Shown here piece by piece: positions 2,738-38,629 of a DNA stretch of 64,000 nucleotides. Under the pieces are notes generated by a model. The model did not search any database. It was not told the origin of the DNA and was given only the letters and a program-made list of their open reading frames with translations. The translations under genes and the position numbers were made by a program. Numbering within the stretch: the first letter of the stretch is position 1; the number at the start of each line of letters is the position of its first letter. This stretch comes from an uncultured Coriobacteriaceae bacterium. Lineage in GTDB: Bacteria; Actinomycetota; Coriobacteriia; Coriobacteriales; Coriobacteriaceae. Where the stretch lies: NCBI GenBank assembly GCA_963931605.1, contig OZ007031.1, positions 913,332 to 977,331 on the forward strand, read 5' to 3'.

Positions 2738-2828
2738 GGGGGGGCTCCTTCGCAGCTCGGGTGCAATGTCGGGCCTATTGTACGGCAAGCGTGTGGAGGT
2801 CTGAAGGCGAGCGGAGGGAGGCGCGCGG

Positions 2829-3440
2829 CGGTTGGTCGCGCTTTCGACAGCCGTCGCAGGGGCCGCGCGCTTTTCTCGGCAGGTGCGGCCGCGGTTAGCC
2901 GCGTTTCCGACGTCGCCGCAGGGGCTGCATGTTCTTCTCGGCAGGTGCGAGGGGCTCGTCAGGCCGCGCCGCCGACGCCGCCACAAAACGCCTGCTTTTC
3001 TCAGCAGACGCAAGGCGCAGTACCCATTTTCGCAACGACCCCTGATGCGGCGCGTTTTTCTCGACAGGTGCGGATCGCGCTAACCGCGTTTCCGACGTCG
3101 CCGCAGGGGCCGCGCGTTTTTCCCGGCAGGTGCGAGGGGCTCGCGGCGTTTCCCCAGGAAACGCGTTAGGGCCTGCGCGCTTTTCTCGGCAGGCGCAAAA
3201 CGGGCGCGCCTTGCGTGGGCGCGCCACCTCCCCCGCTCCCGCATCTGTCGAGAAGAACCTGCCGAGAAGGCCCCGGGACGGCTCCGCGCCCTGCGACTGC
3301 CGAGAAGAACGCGCGGGCCGGCAGCCGCCGCCCCAACCCGCTCTGCACCTGCCGAGAGGAACCCGCAGAAACCGGCTCAAAACCCTCATCCTCGCTGCAT
3401 CTGTCGAGAAAAACGTACGGTGTCGCAACCGCGGCCAAAA
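2829..3440. repeat. mirror repeat block A: six ~62-bp units carrying TTTTCTCGGCAGGTGC, then four to five ~52-bp units carrying the reverse complement
   Basis: Forward motif starts at 2871, 2932, 2996, 3055, 3117, 3181. Reverse motif starts at 3241, (3259), 3293, 3345, 3397. Confidence 0.85.
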
Positions 3441-3615: not shown

Positions 3616-3699
3616 GTGATCGTGAAGCTCACCGAGCTCGTTCGGGCGCTTGTTGCCCTTGTAGCTCTCATTATTATCCTGATGCTCTTGGTCAGGTAA
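3616..3699 (+). CDS. candidate small hydrophobic peptide, 27 aa (MIVKLTELVRALVALVALIIILMLLVR, GTG start)
   Basis: GAGGAGGG RBS lies 5 nt upstream of the GTG. An extended -10-like TGGTATGAT sits at 3552-3560. The patch is lower in G+C by eye. No homology evidence is available. Confidence 0.3.
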   Translation: MIVKLTELVRALVALVALIIILMLLVR

Positions 3700-3703
3700 A
3701 ATC

Positions 3704-5039
3704 GGGGTTATAGGACAAAAAGTGTGTATGGGCTAGTCCCAGTCCATACGGTATGGCTCGGAGCGATGCAGCTCTGACCACACTATGGCATCTCCCCACT
3801 GAGGAATGGTTCCTTGTAGCTTGTCCTGCTGATTGAGTCTCTCGTATATAGCTCTGATAGAGCCGTCCGTCGGCATGGCACGCAGGATCTCCGCTGCAGG
3901 CAAGGGGCTCGGGCTGTGCATACAGCACCACCAGAAGATCGCCTTGAGCCTGCGTTCGATAGAAAGTCCCCTATGGTCCCTGAGCATGGCTCTGAGCTGC
4001 GCGTTGGTGCCGCCTTCGATACGGTTGTTGGTGGCCGGGAGAGGGGCGAGGTGCTCTAGGCGGGGATCAAGGTAGGTGAACAGCGTCCCGGTGTTGATGA
4101 GCCGGGCGAGAGACCTCCGCGCCTTGACGAGGCGTTCATGCGCGAGGACGCACCTTCCCTCTTCCGTCTTCGTCCTCTCCGATAGGAAGTCGTCCCACCT
4201 CTCGGACCACGCAAGGAATGCCTCCGCCCACCCCTGCGCCTCTTTAAGGGTGGTGATGCCGAGCAGCGCTTTGGCAAGGCCGTACAGCTCTGCGCCCGCC
4301 TGCGTGCGGGGCTTCGAGGTGGTGTAGCGCTTGACCTGGGAGAATGCGTGGAAGATGCAGCGCTGGTGGTGCGCACGGGGCCATGTCTTCCCGAGCGCCT
4401 TCGGAAAGCCGTCGCCCCCGTCCGAGACGACCACCTCGGGGGCGGCTATGCGCTGCATCAAGGCCGACCAGCCGCGGCTGTTCTCCGCACGGCATAGGTG
4501 CCATCCCAGTACATGGCGCTCATCCGAGGCGATGAGCACGACGGCCTTTCTTCCGAGGTGTATGCCGTCAACGTAGATGACGCTTCGCGGCTCCTCTATC
4601 TTGGGCGGCATGGGCCATATATCCCAGAAGGGCGCGCACTTCCTTCTGAAGGTCCTGCCGGCCCCCGGCATATCTGATTGACGTTTGCGGGACAAAAGCC
4701 ACGCCAGGAAGGTTCTAAGGTCCTTGGCAGAGGTGTCGATCCTCCTCACCGAGCTCGAGCCGCAGCACCTACATCTGAAGCGAGTCCTGCCAGCTTTCGT
4801 TTTCCCGTTCTTAACCATATTGGAGCCGCAAACAGGGCAGCGGGGATTTCCCACGGCAACCTCGCAGATAGGCCAACTTCACTGTTAGAAACAACATGGT
4901 CTACCTGCGAGGATATGAAATTCTATACACACCTTTTGTCCAGGCAAAAGTTGGGACGATGCAACTCGAAGAGGCAATTTATAGGTATCTACCTGCAGTG
5001 ATACAGGAATCCCATACACACTTTTTGTCCTATAAGCCC
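3704..5039 (-). mobile_element. IS1249-like (IS256 superfamily) insertion sequence, ~1.34 kb
   Basis: Terminal inverted repeats GGGGTTATAGGACAAAAAGTGTGTATGGG (3704-3732) and CCCATACACACTTTTTGTCCTATAAGCCC (5011-5039) match at 28/29. They enclose a single transposase ORF. Confidence 0.85.
3733..4854 (-). CDS. IS1249-family transposase, 373 aa
   Basis: N-terminal zinc-finger CPVCGS...RFRCRCCG. The mutator/IS256-like core includes VIYVDGIHLGRK, VVSDGGDGF and HHQRCIFH. Confidence 0.88.
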   Translation of the reverse strand: MGNPRCPVCGSNMVKNGKTKAGRTRFRCRCCGSSSVRRIDTSAKDLRTFLAWLLSRKRQSDMPGAGRTFRRKCAPFWDIWPMPPKIEEPRSVIYVDGIHLGRKAVVLIASDERHVLGWHLCRAENSRGWSALMQRIAAPEVVVSDGGDGFPKALGKTWPRAHHQRCIFHAFSQVKRYTTSKPRTQAGAELYGLAKALLGITTLKEAQGWAEAFLAWSERWDDFLSERTKTEEGRCVLAHERLVKARRSLARLINTGTLFTYLDPRLEHLAPLPATNNRIEGGTNAQLRAMLRDHRGLSIERRLKAIFWWCCMHSPSPLPAAEILRAMPTDGSIRAIYERLNQQDKLQGTIPQWGDAIVWSELHRSEPYRMDWD

Positions 5040-5378: not shown

Positions 5379-5843
5379 CTACGCGCGAACCTTGAAGCAG
5401 ACTTTCTTCACCTGCTGCGGGCCGTCGCCCGGGAACTCCAGCGTGGGCATGTGCGGCTCCCCCACCACAAAGATCGCGAAATGCCCTTCGTCCAGGTTGC
5501 CGTCAAGCGAGCGCTCGGCATCTACCAGCTCGAAGTCGCCCGCCTCGTCGTATGTCTGCACCAGCGTAGTGGCACCCGCCGCAGTCTTGAACGCCTCGCG
5601 GCCGATAAGGTCGATCTGCACGTCCATGTAGTCGCGGTGCGTCTCGTGGTGCGCGTCCTCGGGCTTGCGCGTGGTAGCCTCCATCACGTTGGCGTACACG
5701 TCGTCGCCGGCAATCTCGTTGCGGCCGAGCGGCAGGGCCGCCAGCTCTTCCGCGCTCTTGTTGGCTAGCCAGTCGATAAGCACGTCGAGATTGGGGTACA
5801 GGCCGCGGTACCTGCCGATATGGGAGAGCTCGTCGTAGATCAT
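5379..5843 (-). CDS. YhcH/YjgK/YiaL-family (DUF386) protein, 154 aa
   Basis: Family-typical layout: MIYDELSHIGRYRGL..., HRDYMDVQIDLIGRE, GHFAIFVVGEPHMP. Start is ATG 5843; the upstream part of the track ORF lies in repeat block B. Confidence 0.75.
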   Translation of the reverse strand: MIYDELSHIGRYRGLYPNLDVLIDWLANKSAEELAALPLGRNEIAGDDVYANVMEATTRKPEDAHHETHRDYMDVQIDLIGREAFKTAAGATTLVQTYDEAGDFELVDAERSLDGNLDEGHFAIFVVGEPHMPTLEFPGDGPQQVKKVCFKVRA

Positions 5844-6009
5844 GGCAACGCCTTTCGTGAAGCGGATGCGCGCGATGCGCCTTGTCGGTTCCATCATACC
5901 CGGATGCGCCGTGCGAACCAACCCGGCGCGGAGTTTGGGCGGTTCGGGTGGTGAGGGGCGGCTGTCCTGCGCTTGGATGCCAGCAGTGCGGGTAACCGCC
6001 GGGACCGGC

Positions 6010-6700
6010 GGCGCATCTGCCGAGAAAAATGCGCAGACTTTTTCAGCCGGCAATGCTTTCGCGACCAAAGGACTTTGCATCTAACGAGAAAAACGCGCGG
6101 GCTTCGTGAGTGGTGACGTTTTCGCAACCAAGCAGGGCATTCGATGTCGGAAGTGCGACCAACCGTCAGCGCCGGTAACGTACCTGCCGAGAAGAATGCG
6201 CGGGCCTCTCGGACGATGACGCTTTCGCGACCAAGCGGGACGATAGGTGTCGGAACCGCGGACAACCGAGTGAGACGAGTTCGGTTGGTCGCTGTTCCGA
6301 CATGGCCGATGTAGTTAGTCGCCCGAACCGCATCTAAATCCCGGAAATCCGGGAGTTGCGTGCGGCCCGGGCGACCAAGCGGAAGTTAGCGGTCGGATAT
6401 GCGACCAACCGGGAGCCTAGATGTCGCACTAACGGGCAAGTAGGAGCTTCGATGTCGCAACCGCGGGCAACTTATGCTTAGACGCCGGAAAGGTGACCAA
6501 CCGCCGGGGGCCACCGGTGCACCTGCCGAGAGAAATGCGCGAACTTCTCGGCCGATGACGCTTTCGCGACCAAGCGGGGCGATAGACGCCGCAAACGAGA
6601 GCAACTGCCAACGCCGGCGGCGTACCTGGCGAGAGTAATGTGCCCGCAGAGGGCGCGAGGCAGGAAGCTACCCCTCAGCCGCTGGCGCACCCGGCGAGAG
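6010..6700. repeat. repeat block B: GCAYCTGCCGAGAARAAYGCGC and GCGACCAAC/GGTTGGTCGC units around a palindromic core
   Basis: First motif starts at 6013, 6077, 6180, 6519, 6622, 6687. GCTTTCGCGACCAAGCGGG-type units lie at about 6054, 6117, 6219 and 6559. Dyad TCCCGGAAATCCGGGA is at 6339-6354. Confidence 0.8.
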
Positions 6701-7918
6701 TTACTCCTCCGCTCCACCGCCCAGCAGGCGCAGGGTGCCCATGAGGACCTGGGCCACGCGGTCGCTGGCGTCGGCGGCGCGGCGCAGAACCTCGTCGCGC
6801 GTGAGATCGGCGTCGCAGGCCCCGTGGGTCACCAGCGTGAGCCCCATGACCTCCATCCCTAACGCCCGAGCCATGATGACCTCGCACACGGCGCTCATGC
6901 CCACATACCGCGCGCCCAATGCGCGAAGCATTCCCGCCTCGGCCGGCGTCGGATAGCTCGGGCCTAGAAGCGCCGCGTACACGCCCTCGTCAAGCGCAAC
7001 GCCTGCCTCCTCGGCCGCCGCGCGCGCAAAGGCACGCAGGTACGGGGAGTACGTCTCGCCCATCGGCACAAACGGCGTGTCGACCATCGAGCCGACGGTA
7101 CGGCATGCCAGCGGGTTTCTCCCCGTGAGGTTGAGGTGGTCGGCGATAAGCCCGACGGTGCCGGGCGCAACATCCTCGTCGAGCCCGCAGGTGCCGCACG
7201 AGAAGATCACGTCGCGGCAGCCGATCCGGTGCGCGTGGCGCACGAGCGCCGTGACCTCGAGCTCGGAGAATCCCTGGTACAGATGGATGCGCCCAGGGTA
7301 CACCACCACCGGCACGCCCTCGATGGTACCAACCAGCGCCTCGAACACGTGGCCCTCAACCGGGCGCGCGTCATCGGGGAAGCCCTCGATGTCGGTATAC
7401 GGGATGCGCCGCACCACGCGCACGCACTGGGCGAGGTCGCCCATCTCGCTGCCCAGCATGATGGCAACCGGATGCTCCACGCTCGGCTCGCAATACGCTA
7501 CCTTTTCCTCGTTCACCACGGGTATCCCCTCTTTCCTGATAAGCTCGGCGGCAACGCCCCAGCCCGGCACGAGCCGGCCGGAGAACGTGCCGTCGTAGAT
7601 GCGGCCGGAGCCGCACGACGGACTCTTGGCCTTCAATATAGCAAGCCGCACGTGCGCCGCCTGGGCGCGCGCCAGGGTTTTGCGGGCACCGGTGGCAAAC
7701 GCCGCGCTAACGTCGTGCCCGGCGGCGTCCAGCACCCGCACACCTGCGCGCTCGGCCGGCGGTCGCGGGCGAGAAAGGCCGCCTGCCGTCTCGGGGCACA
7801 CGCCCACCACGCCCGCACCCAGGCGCGCAGCCAGCCTCTGCACCGCCGCGTTGGGCCGCGCCTCCCCGTCGAACCGGCAGGGCTTTCCCAGCAGGCATGC
7901 GCTTATCGCCACGTTCAT
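6701..7918 (-). CDS. fusion protein: DUF523 (TudS-like Fe-S) domain + trimeric-type purine nucleoside phosphorylase domain, 405 aa
   Basis: N-terminal half has ACLLGKPCRFDGE, GVCPE and KAKSPSCGSG (DUF523 cysteines). C-terminal half has GRIHLYQGFS, ADHLNLTG, GPSYPTPAE and MSAVCE (PunA/MTAP-like). AGGAG RBS precedes ATG 7918. Confidence 0.8.
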   Translation of the reverse strand: MNVAISACLLGKPCRFDGEARPNAAVQRLAARLGAGVVGVCPETAGGLSRPRPPAERAGVRVLDAAGHDVSAAFATGARKTLARAQAAHVRLAILKAKSPSCGSGRIYDGTFSGRLVPGWGVAAELIRKEGIPVVNEEKVAYCEPSVEHPVAIMLGSEMGDLAQCVRVVRRIPYTDIEGFPDDARPVEGHVFEALVGTIEGVPVVVYPGRIHLYQGFSELEVTALVRHAHRIGCRDVIFSCGTCGLDEDVAPGTVGLIADHLNLTGRNPLACRTVGSMVDTPFVPMGETYSPYLRAFARAAAEEAGVALDEGVYAALLGPSYPTPAEAGMLRALGARYVGMSAVCEVIMARALGMEVMGLTLVTHGACDADLTRDEVLRRAADASDRVAQVLMGTLRLLGGGAEE

Positions 7919-13027: not shown

Positions 13028-13076
13028 GCGGGCGAGAAGCGCGCGGCGCTTGCGGGGCGAGGTTCTTCTCGCCCGC
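13028..13076. repeat. hairpin with 12-bp stem GCGGGCGAGAAG / CTTCTCGCCCGC
   Basis: Arms at 13028-13039 and 13065-13076. It carries the GGGCGAGAAG word also used in block C and in the palindromic elements. Confidence 0.7.
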
Positions 13077-13133
13077 GGGCTGCAGCCTGTCGGGGCCGCA
13101 ACTCCGCGCGCTTGGGCCGCGATCCCGTTCGCT

Positions 13134-13202
13134 GGGCCGGGGGCGATAAGGTTCCGAAATCCGATATCGGACGGATTTCGGGTTCTTATCGCCCCCGGCC
13201 CC
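13134..13202. repeat. ~70-bp palindromic intergenic element (copy 1 of 3)
   Basis: GGGCCGGGGGCGATAAGGTTCCGAAATCCG - atatcgga - CGGATTTCGGGTTCTTATCGCCCCCGGCCCC. It belongs to the same family as 41344-41415 and 44281-44348. Confidence 0.8.
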
Positions 13203-14322: not shown

Positions 14323-14904
14323 CTACGCGGTCAGCTTGGGCTTGATGATGCCATATCCACCATTCTTACGGCGATAGATCACGTTGATGACACCGGTGAG
14401 CGAGTTCTCGAAGACGTAGAAGTCGTGCCCGATGAGGTCGGTCTCAACCAGGGCCTGCTCCTCGGTCATCGGGGTGATCTCGATGACCTTCTCGCGCACG
14501 AGCAGGTCGTCGGGCTCCTCTTCCTCCGGCTCGATAAGCTCGGCCAGGTCGTCGACGTGCTCGGCGGGGGCCACCTCGGCGGCAGACTCGCCGCGCTGGC
14601 GCCGGTCGACCACCTTGGTCTTGAACTTGCGCAGCTGGCGGGCGATCTTGTCAGCCGCAGCATCGATGGCCAGGTACATGTCGGAGCCGTGCTCGGCAAC
14701 GCGCACCACGTAGCCGCGGCAGCGCACCGTGACTTCCACGATGGCCGGCTGCGCGATGGAGGGGTTCTTCTCGTAGCGAAGCACGACGTCAACCGTCATG
14801 GGCTCGATATCAAAGACCTTGACGGCCGTCCCGATCTTCTCGTCAACATGAGCGCGCAGTGCGTCGGTGACCGTAGTTTTACGCCCAGAGACCGTGATTT
14901 CCAT
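14323..14904 (-). CDS. hpf: ribosome hibernation-promoting factor, long form, 193 aa
   Basis: MEITVSGRKTTVTDALRAHVDEKI at the N-terminus, AIDAAADKIARQLRKFK, and the C-terminal dimerisation domain IGHDFYVFEN...NVIYRRKNGGYGII. Confidence 0.9.
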   Translation of the reverse strand: MEITVSGRKTTVTDALRAHVDEKIGTAVKVFDIEPMTVDVVLRYEKNPSIAQPAIVEVTVRCRGYVVRVAEHGSDMYLAIDAAADKIARQLRKFKTKVVDRRQRGESAAEVAPAEHVDDLAELIEPEEEEPDDLLVREKVIEITPMTEEQALVETDLIGHDFYVFENSLTGVINVIYRRKNGGYGIIKPKLTA

Positions 14905-15089
14905 GCTCACTCCAATCTGTTGGGGACAGTACAACGTGCGTCTGCTGTGCTTGTACCCAAATTAGCGCGGGCATACGGCGTGCGTCCGGTAAGCGAAAAG
15001 GTCGGGCCGAGGTGTATACGGAGGCCGCACGTTGGATAAGGGCGCGGCACGCCCGTGCGGGCGAGAAGCGCCGGCGGCGGGCGCCGTCG

Positions 15090-16106: not shown

Positions 16107-16544
16107 GGAGCCTCCCCCTCGTTGCAAGCTATATGGTTCCCCCCAGCTGACCTGGTCTTTGCCCCCACACTTGCGCACCGGGGCGTTTGCTCGGGCCGCC
16201 GCGGCGGCCTTCACGACTAACCCGCTCGCCCGCGGGGCAACGTGCCCCAGAGGTGGTATACGGACGGTGCGACTTACTCCTAGGACGCGCCATGATCGCG
16301 CGGCGCGCACGCCGTCGCTTACGTGGACCCTTTCGGCCGCGTCTGCCTTGGGATTGAACAGGCCTCGCGCAAGGGAGCGCGCCAACGGGCACCGTACCCG
16401 CGTGCGTGCGTCTTGCACCTATTCGCAACCACAGACCTGGGAGGAACGTGCGGCAGTATAACAAGAAGAAGCCTAACCGTAAACCTGAACTTGAATGTTT
16501 TGGACAAACGAACAGAGAGGCCGCGTCAGCCGACATGCCGACGC

Positions 16545-17165
16545 GGTGCAAGCGGGCGAAAAGGGGTGTTCACGCAGGGGCGCGCGGGCGAGAAGGGTGT
16601 TCATGCAGGGGGCGCGCGGGCGAGAAGGGTGCTCGTATGAGAGCGCGCGGGCGAAAAGAGCGTTCATACGAAAAGCGTGGGCGAGAAGAACGAGGCGCAT
16701 GGGCGAAAGGAGCGTTCATACGAGCGCTGTGGGCGACAATTGCGTTCATACGACAAGCGTGGGCGAAAAGGACGTTCGTACGGACGCGGTTTTGTCGGCT
16801 AAGCCTTCGCACGGTATTTTTATACCGCAATGCGACCAGCTAGCGGGGAGGCGCATGCCGTAGTGCCGCCCCTACGGGCAACTCCAGTCGTATGATTGCT
16901 TTTCTCGCCCATGCCTGTCGTATGAGTGTTGTTTTCGCCCATACCCGTCGTATGAATGCCTTTTTCGCCCACGCGGTTCGTATGGACGTTGTTTTCGCCC
17001 GGCAGGTCCGTACGAATGGTGATTTCGCCCACGAAGCTCGTATAAGTGCTGTTTTCGCCTGCTTGGTTCGTATGAGCCGTTATTGTCGCCCGCGTGGTTC
17101 GCATGGATGATGATATCGCCCACGGAACTTGCCACGAGGCTCGCACGCACGCTCTTTTCGCCTGG
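16545..17165. repeat. mirror repeat block C: 8 + 8 units of ~30 bp (GGGCGAAAA-N6-TCATACG-N8 and its reverse complement)
   Basis: Left units start at 16554, 16586, 16618, 16649, 16679, 16701, 16731, 16761. Right units start at 16889, 16919, 16949, 16979, 17009, 17039, 17069, 17100. Confidence 0.9.
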
Positions 17166-17398: not shown

Positions 17399-18304
17399 AT
17401 GTCGGGAGGGATCTGCATGTACGCCGCATCCAGCTGCAACCGAATACCCGCTGCCGAACAGACACCTACCGTCGCCGGGATATCCGCCGATGTCGGGATA
17501 CCCACCGGCGCCGGTATACCCACCGCCAACTGGACATCCACCGCATGCGACCCAAGCGTTTCGGCCACCGCAGGCACCCATGGCGATACCCGCGGCCTGG
17601 GCGCACGCCTGAGAAACGCCGCGCTCGAGCTGTTGAGCCCCACGCGCTGCATCGGCTGCGAGAAGCCCGGGGAGCTCATCTGCGCGGAGTGCCTGGAGCG
17701 CATCGAATGGATCGACGCGGCAACGGCCTGCCTTGCGTGCGGCGCGCCCTTTGGGTCGGTCACCTGCACCGAATGCCGCGGCGCCCCCAGCGCCCTTGCC
17801 TGGTGCCTCGCCTGCGCCTCGTACGAAGAGCCGCTCCCCAGCCTCATCCGTGGCTACAAAGACGGCGGCGAGCGGCGCTTGGCCGAGGTAATCGCCGAGA
17901 TGATGGCGGCGCGCTACCTCAGCGCGTGGCGCGACGCAGGCACGCGCCTTGCCGGCTGCGTGCCAGAGGCGATCGTGTTTGTGCCGGCAACGCGCGCGGC
18001 CTTTCGCCGCCGCGGGTTCGACCACATGGAGGCGGTGGCGCGCGGACTTGCCGCCTATGTGGGCCTGCCGCTTGCCGACGCGCTTGCCAAGCGCGGGCGC
18101 GCAGACCAGCGCGAGGCCGGCCGCGCGGGGCGCCTCGCGCAGGCGCAGGGCGTCTACCAGGTGGTGCGAGACGTGCGCGGCGCGCGCCTCCTGCTTATCG
18201 ACGACGTGATAACCACCGGCGCCACCATGAACGCCGCCGCGGGCGCGCTTGTTGCCGCGGGAGCCGCGCAGGTGGCGGGCTTGGCGCTCGCCCGCGTGTG
18301 GTAA
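17399..18304 (+). CDS. comF: ComF-family protein (phosphoribosyltransferase domain); start codon uncertain
   Basis: Zinc-finger-like CIGCEKPGELICAECL...CLACGAPFGSVTCTEC and PRTase motif LLLIDDVITTGATM. The first ~60 codons contain 3 x 18-bp tandem repeats and may not be translated. Confidence 0.8.
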   Translation: MSGGICMYAASSCNRIPAAEQTPTVAGISADVGIPTGAGIPTANWTSTACDPSVSATAGTHGDTRGLGARLRNAALELLSPTRCIGCEKPGELICAECLERIEWIDAATACLACGAPFGSVTCTECRGAPSALAWCLACASYEEPLPSLIRGYKDGGERRLAEVIAEMMAARYLSAWRDAGTRLAGCVPEAIVFVPATRAAFRRRGFDHMEAVARGLAAYVGLPLADALAKRGRADQREAGRAGRLAQAQGVYQVVRDVRGARLLLIDDVITTGATMNAAAGALVAAGAAQVAGLALARVW

Positions 18305-19909: not shown

Positions 19910-20009
19910 GGGCTGCTCCTTCGTCCTTGATTGCGTACCAGTATACGAAGGCGTGCGGACACGATTCCCGAAAGAGTTACTTAAGTTGGCACGGCGGCTT
20001 GACGGCGCC

Positions 20010-20430
20010 GGCGCGCGCCTGCCGGTTGCCCGCGGAAACTACGACCAGGGCAGGCGGCTCCTTCGGTTGCCCGCGGAAAAGTCGCGCAAGCTTTTGGTCG
20101 GTTGCGAGAACATCGATCAGGCCCTCGGCTGGTCGCGAAAATGACGGCTAGAGCCGGTGGTCCCCCTTCGGCTGGTCGCGGAAGCGTCGTGCAGAACTTT
20201 GGTTGGTCGCCGTTTCGACATTGCCGGAACAGTTAGTCGCTCCCACGACAGCTAACTCCCAGAAATCCGGGAGTTGCATGCAGCCCGAACGACCAAACGG
20301 GATTTACCTGCGATTATCGCGATCAACCGGAGGCCTCGATGCCGTTAGCGCAACCAACTGGAGCTTGCGCGCCACCATCGCGGCCAACCGCAGCGCGAAC
20401 ACCGTTAGCGCGGCAAGCGCGAGCTGAATC
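20010..20430. repeat. mirror repeat block D between response-regulator and kinase genes: GGTTGGTCGC-type units, dyad core, then GCGACCAAC-type units
   Basis: Left units lie at about 20022, 20063, 20094, 20127, 20169, 20200, 20230. The dyad CTCCCAGAAATCCGGGAG is at 20255-20272. Right units lie at about 20285, 20315, 20344, 20367. Confidence 0.8.
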
Positions 20431-20436
20431 TCCGCC

Positions 20437-27139: not shown

Positions 27140-27265
27140 CGCGAGCCCGCAGATGGAGAGGCGATCCGACTTGTTCCGCAGCGCACCGCGGAAGTTACGG
27201 TTACTGGTATAGCCGGGGACTTGCACCCCGATTCCCCTGAGCAGCCGCCGGCTCCCCGGCCGCGC
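27140..27265 (-). promoter_or_regulatory. probable cobalamin (B12) riboswitch aptamer in the leader of the DUF4430-ecfT-ecfAA'S operon
   Basis: The minus strand reads AGGGGAATCGGGGTGCAAGTCCCCGGCTATACCAGTAACCGTAA...CCGCGGTGCGCTGCGG..AAGTCGGATCGCCTCTCC. This parallels the GGGAA-GGTG-AA-TCC / CCNGNAACNGTAA core and B12-box of RF00174 as I remember them. No covariance model was run. Confidence 0.6.
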
Positions 27266-37716: not shown

Positions 37717-37964
37717 GATCCCTCTTTCTGCCTGGGAGCGTCTGCTCCGCCCTTAGCACCTGCAGTGTTAAGTATACGTGAATTGATGAAAACCAACTGG
37801 TTACTACCAGTTGAATTCGCAAACGGTCGAAATCTCCATGTGAGGGGTCTAAACGGCAACATGTTGGCGGAAAATGTACAGAAATACGCGGCGAACGGCT
37901 GAGGCACGGCGTGTCGCCGGTGGCAAGGGTGCCTGCGGTAACGGTGCGCGATTTCCACGGGTAG

Positions 37965-38415
37965 CGGCGCGCGTTTTTCTCGGCAGGTGCTACGGTGCGC
38001 ATATTTCTCTCGACAGGTACGGCAGTGCGCACGCTTCTCTCGACAGATGCAGTCTACCTGAGCCTTTTGGGCCCAACCCTGCGCACTCTTCTCGGCAGAT
38101 GCAAAACCGACATGCGGCGCACTCCCCCAACGCTTGCATCTGTCGAGAAAAACCGGGCGAAATCGTGCAGCAATCCCTGCCGACGTCGCACCTGCCGAGA
38201 AGAACATGCCAACGCACCGTCAGTGGCCCCAGCCCCCTCACACCTGTCGAGAAAAACCAGCGAAACAGCGCGGCATACGTTGTCGACGTTGCGTCTGCCG
38301 AGACAAACTAACCGACATATCGCCAGCGGCTTTAACCTTCCTGCACCTGCCGAGAAGAACGCTCAAGGGGCCCCGCACTCGCACAAGCGGACGCATCTGC
38401 CGGGAAGATCGCGCA
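37965..38415. repeat. mirror repeat block E: four TTYTCTCGRCAGRTGC units, then six reverse-complement units at a 52-bp phase
   Basis: Forward motif starts at 37974, 38004, 38035, 38087. Reverse motif starts at 38136, 38188, 38240, 38291, 38343, 38393. Confidence 0.85.
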
Positions 38416-38452
38416 GAGCCCCCCGCGCGCAGAAAACGCCTGCGCCAGCCAA

Positions 38453-38488
38453 GAAAAAAGCGCTCCGGAGCATGAAGCCCCGGAGCGC
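38453..38488 (-). terminator. rho-independent terminator downstream of glmM
   Basis: On the minus strand: GCGCTCCGG-ggcttcatgct-CCGGAGCGC followed by TTTTTT. Confidence 0.7.
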
Positions 38489-38629
38489 TCGAAGCGCAAT
38501 CAGCACGATGCGGTGCAACGCCATCGGCGCAACATGATCAAGGCAACGTGACGCCCTCGGCGGACGCGTCGCCCGCAGCCGGGCACGCCCGCGCAGCACG
38601 CCCCGTCCTAGCGCCGTCGCCCCGCGCGC

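Follow-up and report, generated by a model that had tools for sequence, protein, structure and literature searches.

We analysed a 64,000-nt window of the genome of an uncultured Coriobacteriaceae bacterium (GenBank assembly GCA_963931605.1, contig OZ007031.1, positions 913,332 to 977,331 of the forward strand), in which a dense repeat array, here called block A, lies upstream of the gene glf. Block A was found to be built of two inverted arms of tandem units around a short conserved core, and we consider it, with a probability of about 0.55, to be one copy of a lineage-restricted family of composite intergenic repeats whose core would be bound by a protein on duplex DNA. The family is small and changes fast, belongs to one uncultured gut lineage of Coriobacteriia, and is more akin to the MIRUs of mycobacteria or the BIMEs of enterobacteria than to a regulatory site dedicated to glf. 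The arrays are real, non-random and non-coding and are dispersed over at least three loci, where they fill the space between the upstream stop codon or terminator and the next promoter. The length of each unit is near a whole number of helical turns, the number of copies changes by unequal recombination, and even very close relatives differ at single loci by gain, loss or replacement of the array. A protein probably recognises the core on duplex DNA, as suggested by the conservation of core over spacer in the old units, by the helical phasing and by an arm geometry that persists when the core sequence has changed.

Core motif, inverted arms and helical phasing

The 16-mer TTTTCTCGGCAGGTGC starts on the plus strand of block A at 2871, 2933, 2996, 3056, 3118 and 3181, leaving gaps of 62, 63, 60, 62 and 63 bp. 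Its reverse complement follows at 3241, 3293, 3345 and 3397 with gaps of exactly 52 bp, and a partial, overlapping reverse copy occupies 3255-3270. The earlier note on this DNA, made from the letters alone, had placed the four reverse starts and their 52-bp step at the same positions. Three of its six forward starts were also right, while the other three were displaced by 1 nt because the start of the T-run is ambiguous, and the forward spacings now stand at 60-63 bp; the extra partial reverse copy is present as well, at 3255-3270. When the window was searched for TTTTCTCGGCAGGTGC with up to three mismatches, 27 matches were obtained against 0.55 expected and none of 100 shuffled sequences scored as high, which supports the earlier reading of a strongly enriched motif that occurs in several blocks. 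Alignment of all copies widened the conserved core to about 22-23 nt, GCGCGT-TTTTCTCGRCAGRTGC. Each core carries a short A/T-tract, in a genome of 67% G+C.

Within the units of the left arm, a motif-2-like submotif (GGTTrGCCGCGTTTCCGAC...) comes first and the 22-bp core second. A duplication of about 185 bp had been noticed in this arm, and it was recovered here: the 97 nt of 2862-2958 and 3047-3143 are 85% identical at an offset of 185 bp, and the 33-mers quoted for it were found at 2893-2925 and 3079-3110. Between the two arms, AAAAC follows the last forward copy and CTCCCCC precedes the first reverse copy, and the centre contains, as previously described, two copies of GGGCGCGCC, which we located at 3202-3210 and 3217-3225.

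The indication of constraint was obtained from the 52-bp units, in which the conserved positions are confined to the core. Pairwise identity of the core was 0.72 in these units, whereas the spacers of the right arm are only weakly related (in-register identity 0.37; null 0.294 +/- 0.010). Between alternate units the spacer identity reaches 0.65, which indicates an old 104-bp dimer. Taken together, these values point to an old tandem duplication in which only the core has been held under constraint. A purely neutral minisatellite, in which the arrays would be selfish or neutral products of slippage and recombination that build up in unselected DNA without any protein reader, and the core would owe its apparent conservation to recent amplification of a master unit or short-tract gene conversion, is a serious rival to this reading, albeit an unlikely one. 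It has to accommodate old 52-bp units that hold their core at 0.72 with spacers down to 0.37, and at 22 bp the core offers little length for RecA-dependent gene conversion.

The earlier note had also remarked that 52 and 62 bp are close to five and six helical turns. This was evaluated on the spacings between same-orientation neighbours of motif 1 (the motif of block A), of block B (30-32 bp) and of the 31-bp repeats, both described below, and of the arrays of relatives. A period scan from 8 to 13 bp peaked at 10.3-10.5 bp, and R was 0.86 over 42 spacings, 0.94 over the medians of 13 arms and 0.98 over five unit classes (30.5, 31, 52, 62 and 103 bp; P ~2.5e-4 against uniform spacings). The unit lengths thus amount to 3, 5, 6 or 10 helical turns, and what had been a remark on two lengths became a statistical fit to all of them. 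Phasing at about 10.4 bp is a property of duplex DNA, which argues that the same face of the helix presents all the cores. Lengths at multiples of about 10.4 bp in every one of the independent unit types are a further point against a neutral minisatellite.

Table 1. Positions in the window of block A and its parts, of the two other loci and of the features flanking block A
Feature	Position	Strand	Description
Block A	2829-3440		
Left arm	2829-3200	+	six ~62-bp tandem units; Tandem Repeats Finder period 62, 5.0 copies; direct-repeat family D1
Left-arm cores	2865-2886, 2927-2948, 2990-3011, 3050-3071, 3112-3133, 3175-3196	+	
Higher-order 185-bp repeat	2862-3143	+	three units; direct-repeat family D2
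Centre	3197-3240	.	orientation flips; homologous to block C centre
Right arm	3241-3440	-	four 52-bp units and partial copy; direct-repeat family D3
Right-arm cores	3241-3262, 3293-3314, 3345-3366, 3397-3418	-	
Block A'	5990-6702	-	five to six cores: 6013, 6077, 6180, 6519, 6622 and a weak one at ~6685-6702 over the stop codon
Block C	37960-38460	.	same element type as block A, forward-then-reverse
Block C forward cores (starts)	37975, 38005, 38035, 38087	+	spacings 30, 30, 52 bp
Block C reverse cores (starts)	38136, 38188, 38240, 38291, 38343, 38393	-	spacings 49-52 bp
Sigma-70-like glf promoter (TTCAGA-17-TACAAT)	2777-2805	-	predicted; directly left of the array, outside the repeat
IS256-family element (Transposase_mut)	3704-5039		29-nt terminal inverted repeats, 97% complementary

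Further loci and turnover among relatives

A sequence profile of the core returned 25 strong copies in the window, all of them within three intergenic loci, namely block A, block A' and block C (Table 1). The cores of A' are spaced 64 or 103 bp apart, most of them are preceded by CTTGGTCGCGAAAGCGTCA, and the array is interleaved with a palindromic element based on a second motif (motif 2; 6280-6426). In block C, the reverse cores are followed by the T-tract of the glmM terminator (38458-38490), which itself scores as the last "copy" of the block. Block A at 3172-3265 and block C at 38078-38160 share 71% of their bases over 94 bp, and the similarity extends beyond the core; this homologous junction, together with the shared forward-then-reverse layout, indicates a common origin of A and C.

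Direct evidence for a change in copy number came from an independent short-read contig of another sample (L002), which is identical to the window over 3.3 kb with the sole difference that 2899-3083 (185 bp, three units) are missing. The breakpoints of this deletion lie within a repeated 27-nt stretch, which points to unequal recombination, and a sequence identical but for one clean 185-bp deletion means that the array is not an assembly artefact.

To compare whole loci, we considered the spacers between orthologous genes. The spacer between glmM and nagB measures 913 bp here, 298 bp in the sister contig L098 (NagB 96% identical) and 281 bp in L100-102 (84%), and the glmM terminator on one side and the nagB promoter/operator ACTGGT-N4-ACCAGT on the other align in L098 and L100-102. 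Because the flanks align and the spacers of the relatives are shorter, about 600 bp, which is block C, is lineage-specific. The palindrome upstream of nagB, ACTGGTAGTAACCAGT (ACTGGTTACTACCAGT in the relatives), lies at 37797-37812 here, at ~4903-4918 in L098 and at ~4901-4916 in L100; it resembles a DasR/NagR-type (GntR) operator and has a TATACT -10-like box after it. The palindrome is kept in all three lineages, but the DNA upstream of it is not.

The spacer between a response-regulator gene and a histidine-kinase gene varies in length, from 89 bp in the outgroup L106 to 527 bp here and 752 bp in the sister L105. In the window (19910-20436) it holds a motif-2 palindromic element that is 77% identical over 148 bp to the middle of A' (6280-6426). 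Such motif-2 elements are arrays of GGTTGGTCGCG / CGCGACCAACC around the hairpin TCCCGGAAATCCGGGA, and this copy splits the pair of response-regulator and SenX3-like kinase genes. The insert of L105 is a different element, made on the variant core TTCTTCTCGNCTTGCGC: two forward copies 63 bp apart, each after a second submotif, are followed by an A+T-rich centre and then by three reverse copies ~52 bp apart (50-54 bp when read directly). This element shares its arm geometry with block A (63 bp forward, ~52 bp reverse) and stands at another locus. Upstream of glf in the sister L093, whose Glf is 97% identical, the variant core TTCTTCTCGNCTTGCGC was again found, at a spacing of 62-64 bp and together with unrelated G-rich repeats; here the arrangement is divergent, not convergent.

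The profile built on the window gave only weak matches at the loci of the sister lineage and no match at those of the outgroup, which, combined with the locus-by-locus comparison, indicates that the elements turn over one locus at a time. The core thus varies between sister genomes and is uniform inside each, and the 62-63/52 arm geometry outlasts the sequence of the core. Conservation of the motif spacing in related genomes had been named in the earlier note as a point to check, and steps of 62/63 bp and ~52 bp do recur in the element of the sister lineage. Fast turnover between relatives, the 185-bp copy-number difference in one strain and the restriction of the arrays to gene-free gaps are all what a neutral minisatellite would produce; a sister element that keeps the 63/52 geometry despite its changed core is not. 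Gene callers have put 'proteins' of 208 and 251 aa on the sister arrays (L093 198-824 and L105 4230-4985); neither has a Pfam match, and both are probably spurious ORFs (open reading frames) made by the repeats.

A role specific to glf was examined in view of the position of block A. The glf start codon lies at 2735-2737 on the minus strand, and the array begins about 25 bp upstream of the -35 hexamer of the predicted glf promoter (Table 1). An operator array, at whose phased sites an activator or repressor would act on this promoter, was the practical upshot of the earlier note, and both the close approach to the -35 hexamer and the helical phasing of the sites would suit it. However, genes with no functional relation to glf have the same core and architecture beside them, between glmM and nagB and upstream of a DUF386 gene. 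Among close relatives the arrays come and go or are replaced while the flanking promoters are conserved: in the sister L093 the glf promoter segment is also visible and seems, by eye, to be kept, but the repeats upstream of it are different, and one strain does without 185 bp of the array. A glf-specific role is therefore unlikely, and an operator array in the strict sense very improbable.

As for the other neighbouring genes, block C sits between the glmM terminator and the nagB promoter, and A' lies upstream of the DUF386 gene. Both A' and the response-regulator/kinase element begin right at stop codons without a terminator, so that they are probably co-transcribed. The best named homologues of Glf (84%) are from Slackia and Olsenella, and those of the kinase (58-61%) from Collinsella and Enorma. 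To the right of block A there is a patch of lower G+C with a 27-aa hydrophobic ORF, followed by the IS256-family element and then by tRNA-Thr; the placement of the block between the glf start and a low-G+C patch with an insertion sequence (IS), as given earlier, was thereby confirmed. The IS256-family transposase ORF covers only part of the Pfam model and may be decayed, and short-read contigs of this species break inside the element (L002 ends at 3789). The 27-aa ORF (VIVKLTELVRALVALVALIIILMLLVR, 3616-3699, plus strand) is preceded by a GAGGAGG Shine-Dalgarno sequence and an extended -10 box (TGgTATGAT) and resembles a type I toxin. No Pfam match was obtained among the ORFs covering the patch, a search that did not include the 27-aa peptide itself.

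Several other repeats and RNAs were encountered in the window. Block B (16552-17124) is based on a different motif, GGGCGAAAAG..CGTTCATACGA, with the T-run form TTTTCGCCCAC; it comprises 8 + 8 copies at 30-32 bp, divergent around a centre, with arms that are 72-74% complementary over 82-93 nt. It lies between a raiA RNA (16138-16445, minus strand; Rfam RF03072, 127 bits) and a ComFC-like gene (17399-18304), in a comFC-raiA spacer that measures 953 bp here and ~300 bp in L105, where it is too short for the block B array. The raiA RNA itself has an SBP_bac_3 gene and the hpf/raiA gene (14323-14934) downstream of it. A DUF4430 / ECF-transporter cluster is preceded by an AdoCbl-II riboswitch (27159-27238, minus strand). 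A 31-bp tandem repeat, TGGCGCGGCGACAGGCGGTTTCGCCCCCTGC, at 952-1010, downstream of an ABC ATPase gene, is kept at the orthologous site of the sister (L093 2559-2617), unlike blocks A-C. Between the DegV and dehydrogenase genes, 13028-13200 holds two nested palindromes with TTCTCGCCC / TTATCGCCCCC arms (e.g. GGGGGCGATAAGGTTCCGAAATCCGATATCGGACGGATTTCGGGTTCTTATCGCCCCC), and the length of this spacer is 266 bp here and 70 bp in the outgroup, with the sister (179 bp) in between.

To assess the wider distribution, one genome from each of 185,579 species was scanned for a two-copy pattern, and 90 loci were returned. The loci inspected, including all eight from Coriobacteriia/Actinomycetota, were chance or coding repeats with the exception of one array in an Atopobiaceae metagenome-assembled genome (L077, CALUJM010000024.1). 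This array (5599-5830) repeats a 61-bp unit 3.8 times and carries CTGCCGAGAAAAC, which in the unit consensus, judged by eye, lies in the loop of a strong hairpin (GGTGCGGGTTCGCGACAG...CGTCGCGTCGCCGCAC); the 62-bp unit may be distantly related to it. A terminator precedes the array, and the promoter region that follows it contains many TTTGCGCA repeats. A scan of JGI metagenomes gave two matches, L103, which is without any full motif, and L104, a coding lysine/alanine-rich repeat. A search of the literature for intergenic repeats of Coriobacteriia found nothing.

Weighing a proposed protein-bound core against other readings

The earlier note had taken the many ORFs of block A to be spurious, and the analysis sides with it. 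No ORF of the block shows the strong bias in G+C at third codon positions that is characteristic of the genome, and none has a Pfam match; none of the lengths 52, 62 and 185 bp is divisible by 3, and the natural 185-bp deletion would shift any frame. On these grounds a coding function was rejected.

RNA candidates were tried in a similar way. Rfam 15 gave no match for A, A', C or the sister element at gathering or at permissive thresholds (E up to 1-10), and a known RNA family was rejected. When 25 aligned copies were submitted to RNAalifold, no consensus pair was obtained, and the sole plausible 4-bp stem, around the T-run, had covariation no better than that of shuffles; a structured RNA was rejected for want of both a consensus fold and covariation. 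The 36 nt upstream of each copy fold like shuffles (mean z -0.16), the exception being the true glmM terminator, and a terminator consensus scan in block A gave the shuffled expectation. An array of terminators was discarded as well, since no hairpin stands 5' of the T-runs other than at the genuine glmM terminator.

These results bear on a broader RNA-level reading, in which transcribed units would act as structured RNAs, as processing or stability elements similar to repetitive extragenic palindromes (REPs), or as Rho-dependent or intrinsic termination modules. The probable co-transcription of A' and of the response-regulator/kinase element is consistent with it, as is the 61-bp unit of L077 with its core in a hairpin loop, and the whole of block A folds better than shuffles on both strands (z -4.5 and -5.2). 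However, a fold that is equally good on both strands reflects the inverted arms, and a 10.4-bp phasing belongs to duplex DNA. With neither consensus structure nor covariation, no hairpin ahead of the T-run and no Rfam match, we hold an RNA-level element to be extremely improbable.

A number of observations weigh against the protein-site reading that we favour. In the young 185-bp duplicate the core is no better conserved than the rest (6/44 mismatches in the core vs 9/53 outside it), as a neutral minisatellite would predict, and the case for constraint therefore rests on the old 52-bp units. The unit classes used for the phasing share ancestry and were chosen post hoc, and the treatment of L093, L098 and L105 as one sister lineage was inferred from identity levels and sample origin. 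The window is cut from a 2.39-Mb contig of an ENA metagenome assembly (ERZ21564551, s19629.ctg024876c) that bears the suffix for circular contigs in its name. The inspected DNA amounts to about 82 kb of the 2.39-Mb genome (the 64-kb window and 18 kb beyond it); there is no copy in the 18 kb beyond the window, and no candidate for a binding or mobilising protein was seen in the ~82 kb read. The sole nearby transposase is of the IS256 type, and its inverted repeats are unrelated to the core. When filled and empty sites were compared, no target-site duplication or defined termini could be read, the boundaries being too diverged.

With these points in mind, a protein-bound core would work as follows. 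Each element consists of two inverted arms of tandem units, of ~62 bp (or 30 bp) and ~52 bp, in which only the ~22-bp core stays constant; this core would act as duplex DNA, not as RNA. It would be recognised by a putative trans-acting protein, bound at one site after another on the same face of the helix, and the phasing would permit cooperative same-face binding or wrapping. Such a protein might be an enzyme that mobilises the element or a recruited nucleoid or topology protein; gyrase is possible, as for BIME-2 (of the bacterial interspersed mosaic elements, BIMEs). It is this putative interaction that would preserve the core among decaying spacers. An influence on glf, if there is one, would be indirect, in that a bent or protein-coated stretch would abut the -35 hexamer, with no dedicated operator.

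Comparison with known repeat systems

Arrays of transposase sites offer one comparison for the two-armed layout. The TnsB sites of Tn7 and the L1-L3/R1-R3 sites of Mu are ~22-bp non-palindromic sites that are direct within an end, inverted between ends and unequally spaced. In block A and its relatives, non-palindromic sites of ~22 bp are likewise direct within each arm and inverted between arms, and their spacing is unequal: 62 and 52 bp in the two arms of A, 30 and 52 bp in those of C, and 63 and ~52 bp in those of the sister element. The arms could thus be arrays of subterminal transposase sites of a non-autonomous transposon, similar to a miniature inverted-repeat transposable element, with the transposase encoded elsewhere, which would be a sub-case of the protein-binding reading. 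Orthologous sites that are filled, empty or occupied by a different element, the homologous junction of A and C, and a Mu-type transposase domain called in a related genome (L095/L096) would all agree with this. Unlike in Tn7 and Mu, however, there is neither cargo nor a transposase beside any copy, and no target-site duplication, recognisable termini or conserved terminal sequence was identified at boundaries that are too diverged to read. The sites are also many more, and 10-11 sites with tandem higher-order repeats suggest local duplication and not fixed ends. The A' copies, moreover, are in a single orientation with irregular spacing, and the arrangement of L093 is divergent, not convergent. 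We regard such a transposon as quite doubtful, even a little more so than a neutral minisatellite, and retain the more general reading of a protein-bound core.

The iteron and centromere arrays of plasmids (the 43-bp repeats of F sopC, R1 parC, P1 incA/incC) are phased direct protein sites of ~20 bp, and in some of them blocks in opposite orientation assemble a higher-order nucleoprotein complex. The arrays described here are helically phased in the same manner (period 10.3-10.5 bp, R 0.86-0.98). They differ in that plasmid arrays adjoin rep/par genes, whereas these stand at several loci in a chromosomal housekeeping context with no rep/par gene, and in that their spacings are of 3-6 turns with unconserved spacers. 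BLAST gave no phage, viral or plasmid match, and a plasmid or phage origin was rejected.

A clustered regularly interspaced short palindromic repeat (CRISPR) array was considered in view of the regular 52-bp period, which can be read as a ~22-bp repeat and a ~30-bp spacer. It was rejected, as the repeats are only ~72% identical, the spacers are homologous to each other and the orientation flips; a Pfam scan of the 30 long ORFs showed no cas domain, and no phage or viral sequence was matched.

Among the interspersed intergenic repeats, with which block A is to be placed, the Neisseria intergenic mosaic elements (NIMEs) and the REP/BIME/REPIN group appear close. In NIMEs, where dRS3/NTS repeats flank RS units, a conserved repeat of ~20 bp alternates with poorly conserved segments of 50-150-bp unit length (PMC3184786, PMC11893778), and here too a conserved repeat of ~20 bp and poorly conserved segments cluster in plastic intergenic regions. 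In contrast, dRS3/NTS repeats form a hairpin that the ssDNA nuclease SsnA and a phage recombinase read, and the published pattern of the Ssn-related motif (SRM) HGTCWYN(0-2)YYVSBRHN(0-5)WNVSBRGN(0-2)RNCYNB was not enriched here, with one match, outside block A, against 0.75 in shuffles. A repeat of the Ssn/NTS type was rejected accordingly.

REP, BIME and REPIN sequences, which occur in enterobacteria and Pseudomonas, resemble the present arrays as short, G+C-rich, species-specific intergenic repeats, often 3' of genes, in mosaic arrays of variable copy number; all 25 strong profile copies (25/25) are intergenic, and the sister has its own variant of the core. As in REPINs, the basic dispersed module, seen at the junction of A and C, joins two cores in inverted orientation across a spacer of fixed length. 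BIMEs bind IHF, Pol I and gyrase (PMC3184786). However, REPs are imperfect palindromes that form hairpins for RAYT transposases and alternate in BIMEs, whereas the core described here is not palindromic and its copies all point the same way within an arm, the orientation changing once. The Pfam scan of 30 long ORFs gave no Y1_Tnp domain (RAYT).

Block A is a member of no named family, because the defining features of each are absent from it; its phasing and two-pitch architecture are unusual, and the element is restricted to its lineage. The block A family unites features that are normally separate, namely a non-palindromic core, strict helical phasing and two arms of unequal pitch, and the unequal-pitch geometry survives as the core drifts between sister lineages. 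Tentatively, and as an improbable option, the family may stand for an undescribed class of interspersed element, a mobile two-armed scaffold of phased sites at fixed but unequal pitch (5 and 6 turns), with a dedicated, co-evolving DNA-binding protein (a transposase-like enzyme or a nucleoid or topology factor) that would form a wrapped nucleoprotein complex between transcription units, and with block B and motif 2 as parallel systems. If a cognate protein exists, the family would be a tractable case of protein-site co-evolution and of the origin of intergenic nucleoprotein structures. Short interspersed repeats such as REP/BIME, mycobacterial interspersed repetitive units (MIRUs) and NIME affect genome plasticity, mRNA fate and DNA topology and serve as typing markers; such repeats are not known to have been reported from Coriobacteriia. 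Arrays of this kind also break short-read assemblies, the contigs of relatives ending there (L002 is an example), and yield spurious ORF calls.

MIRUs appear to be the closest analogues, and it is to them that block A is likened by description. They are tandem units of 40-100 bp, with classes of 51-54 bp and 77 bp, at tens of intergenic loci (PMC3184786, PMC3558156), and some lie inside the senX3-regX3 two-component operon of M. tuberculosis (PMC4213456). MIRU units differ in being conserved over their whole length and in a single orientation that matches the flanking genes, whereas here conservation within the 52-bp arm stops at the 22-bp core and the arrays flip; nor were small ORFs overlapping the flanking genes found here. 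On the other hand, both belong to the phylum Actinomycetota, and units of 52 and 62 bp are present here at A, A' and C. As with MIRUs, the copy number varies between strains (L002 being without 185 bp), sites are filled or empty between relatives, and related elements lie between the response-regulator and SenX3-like kinase genes.

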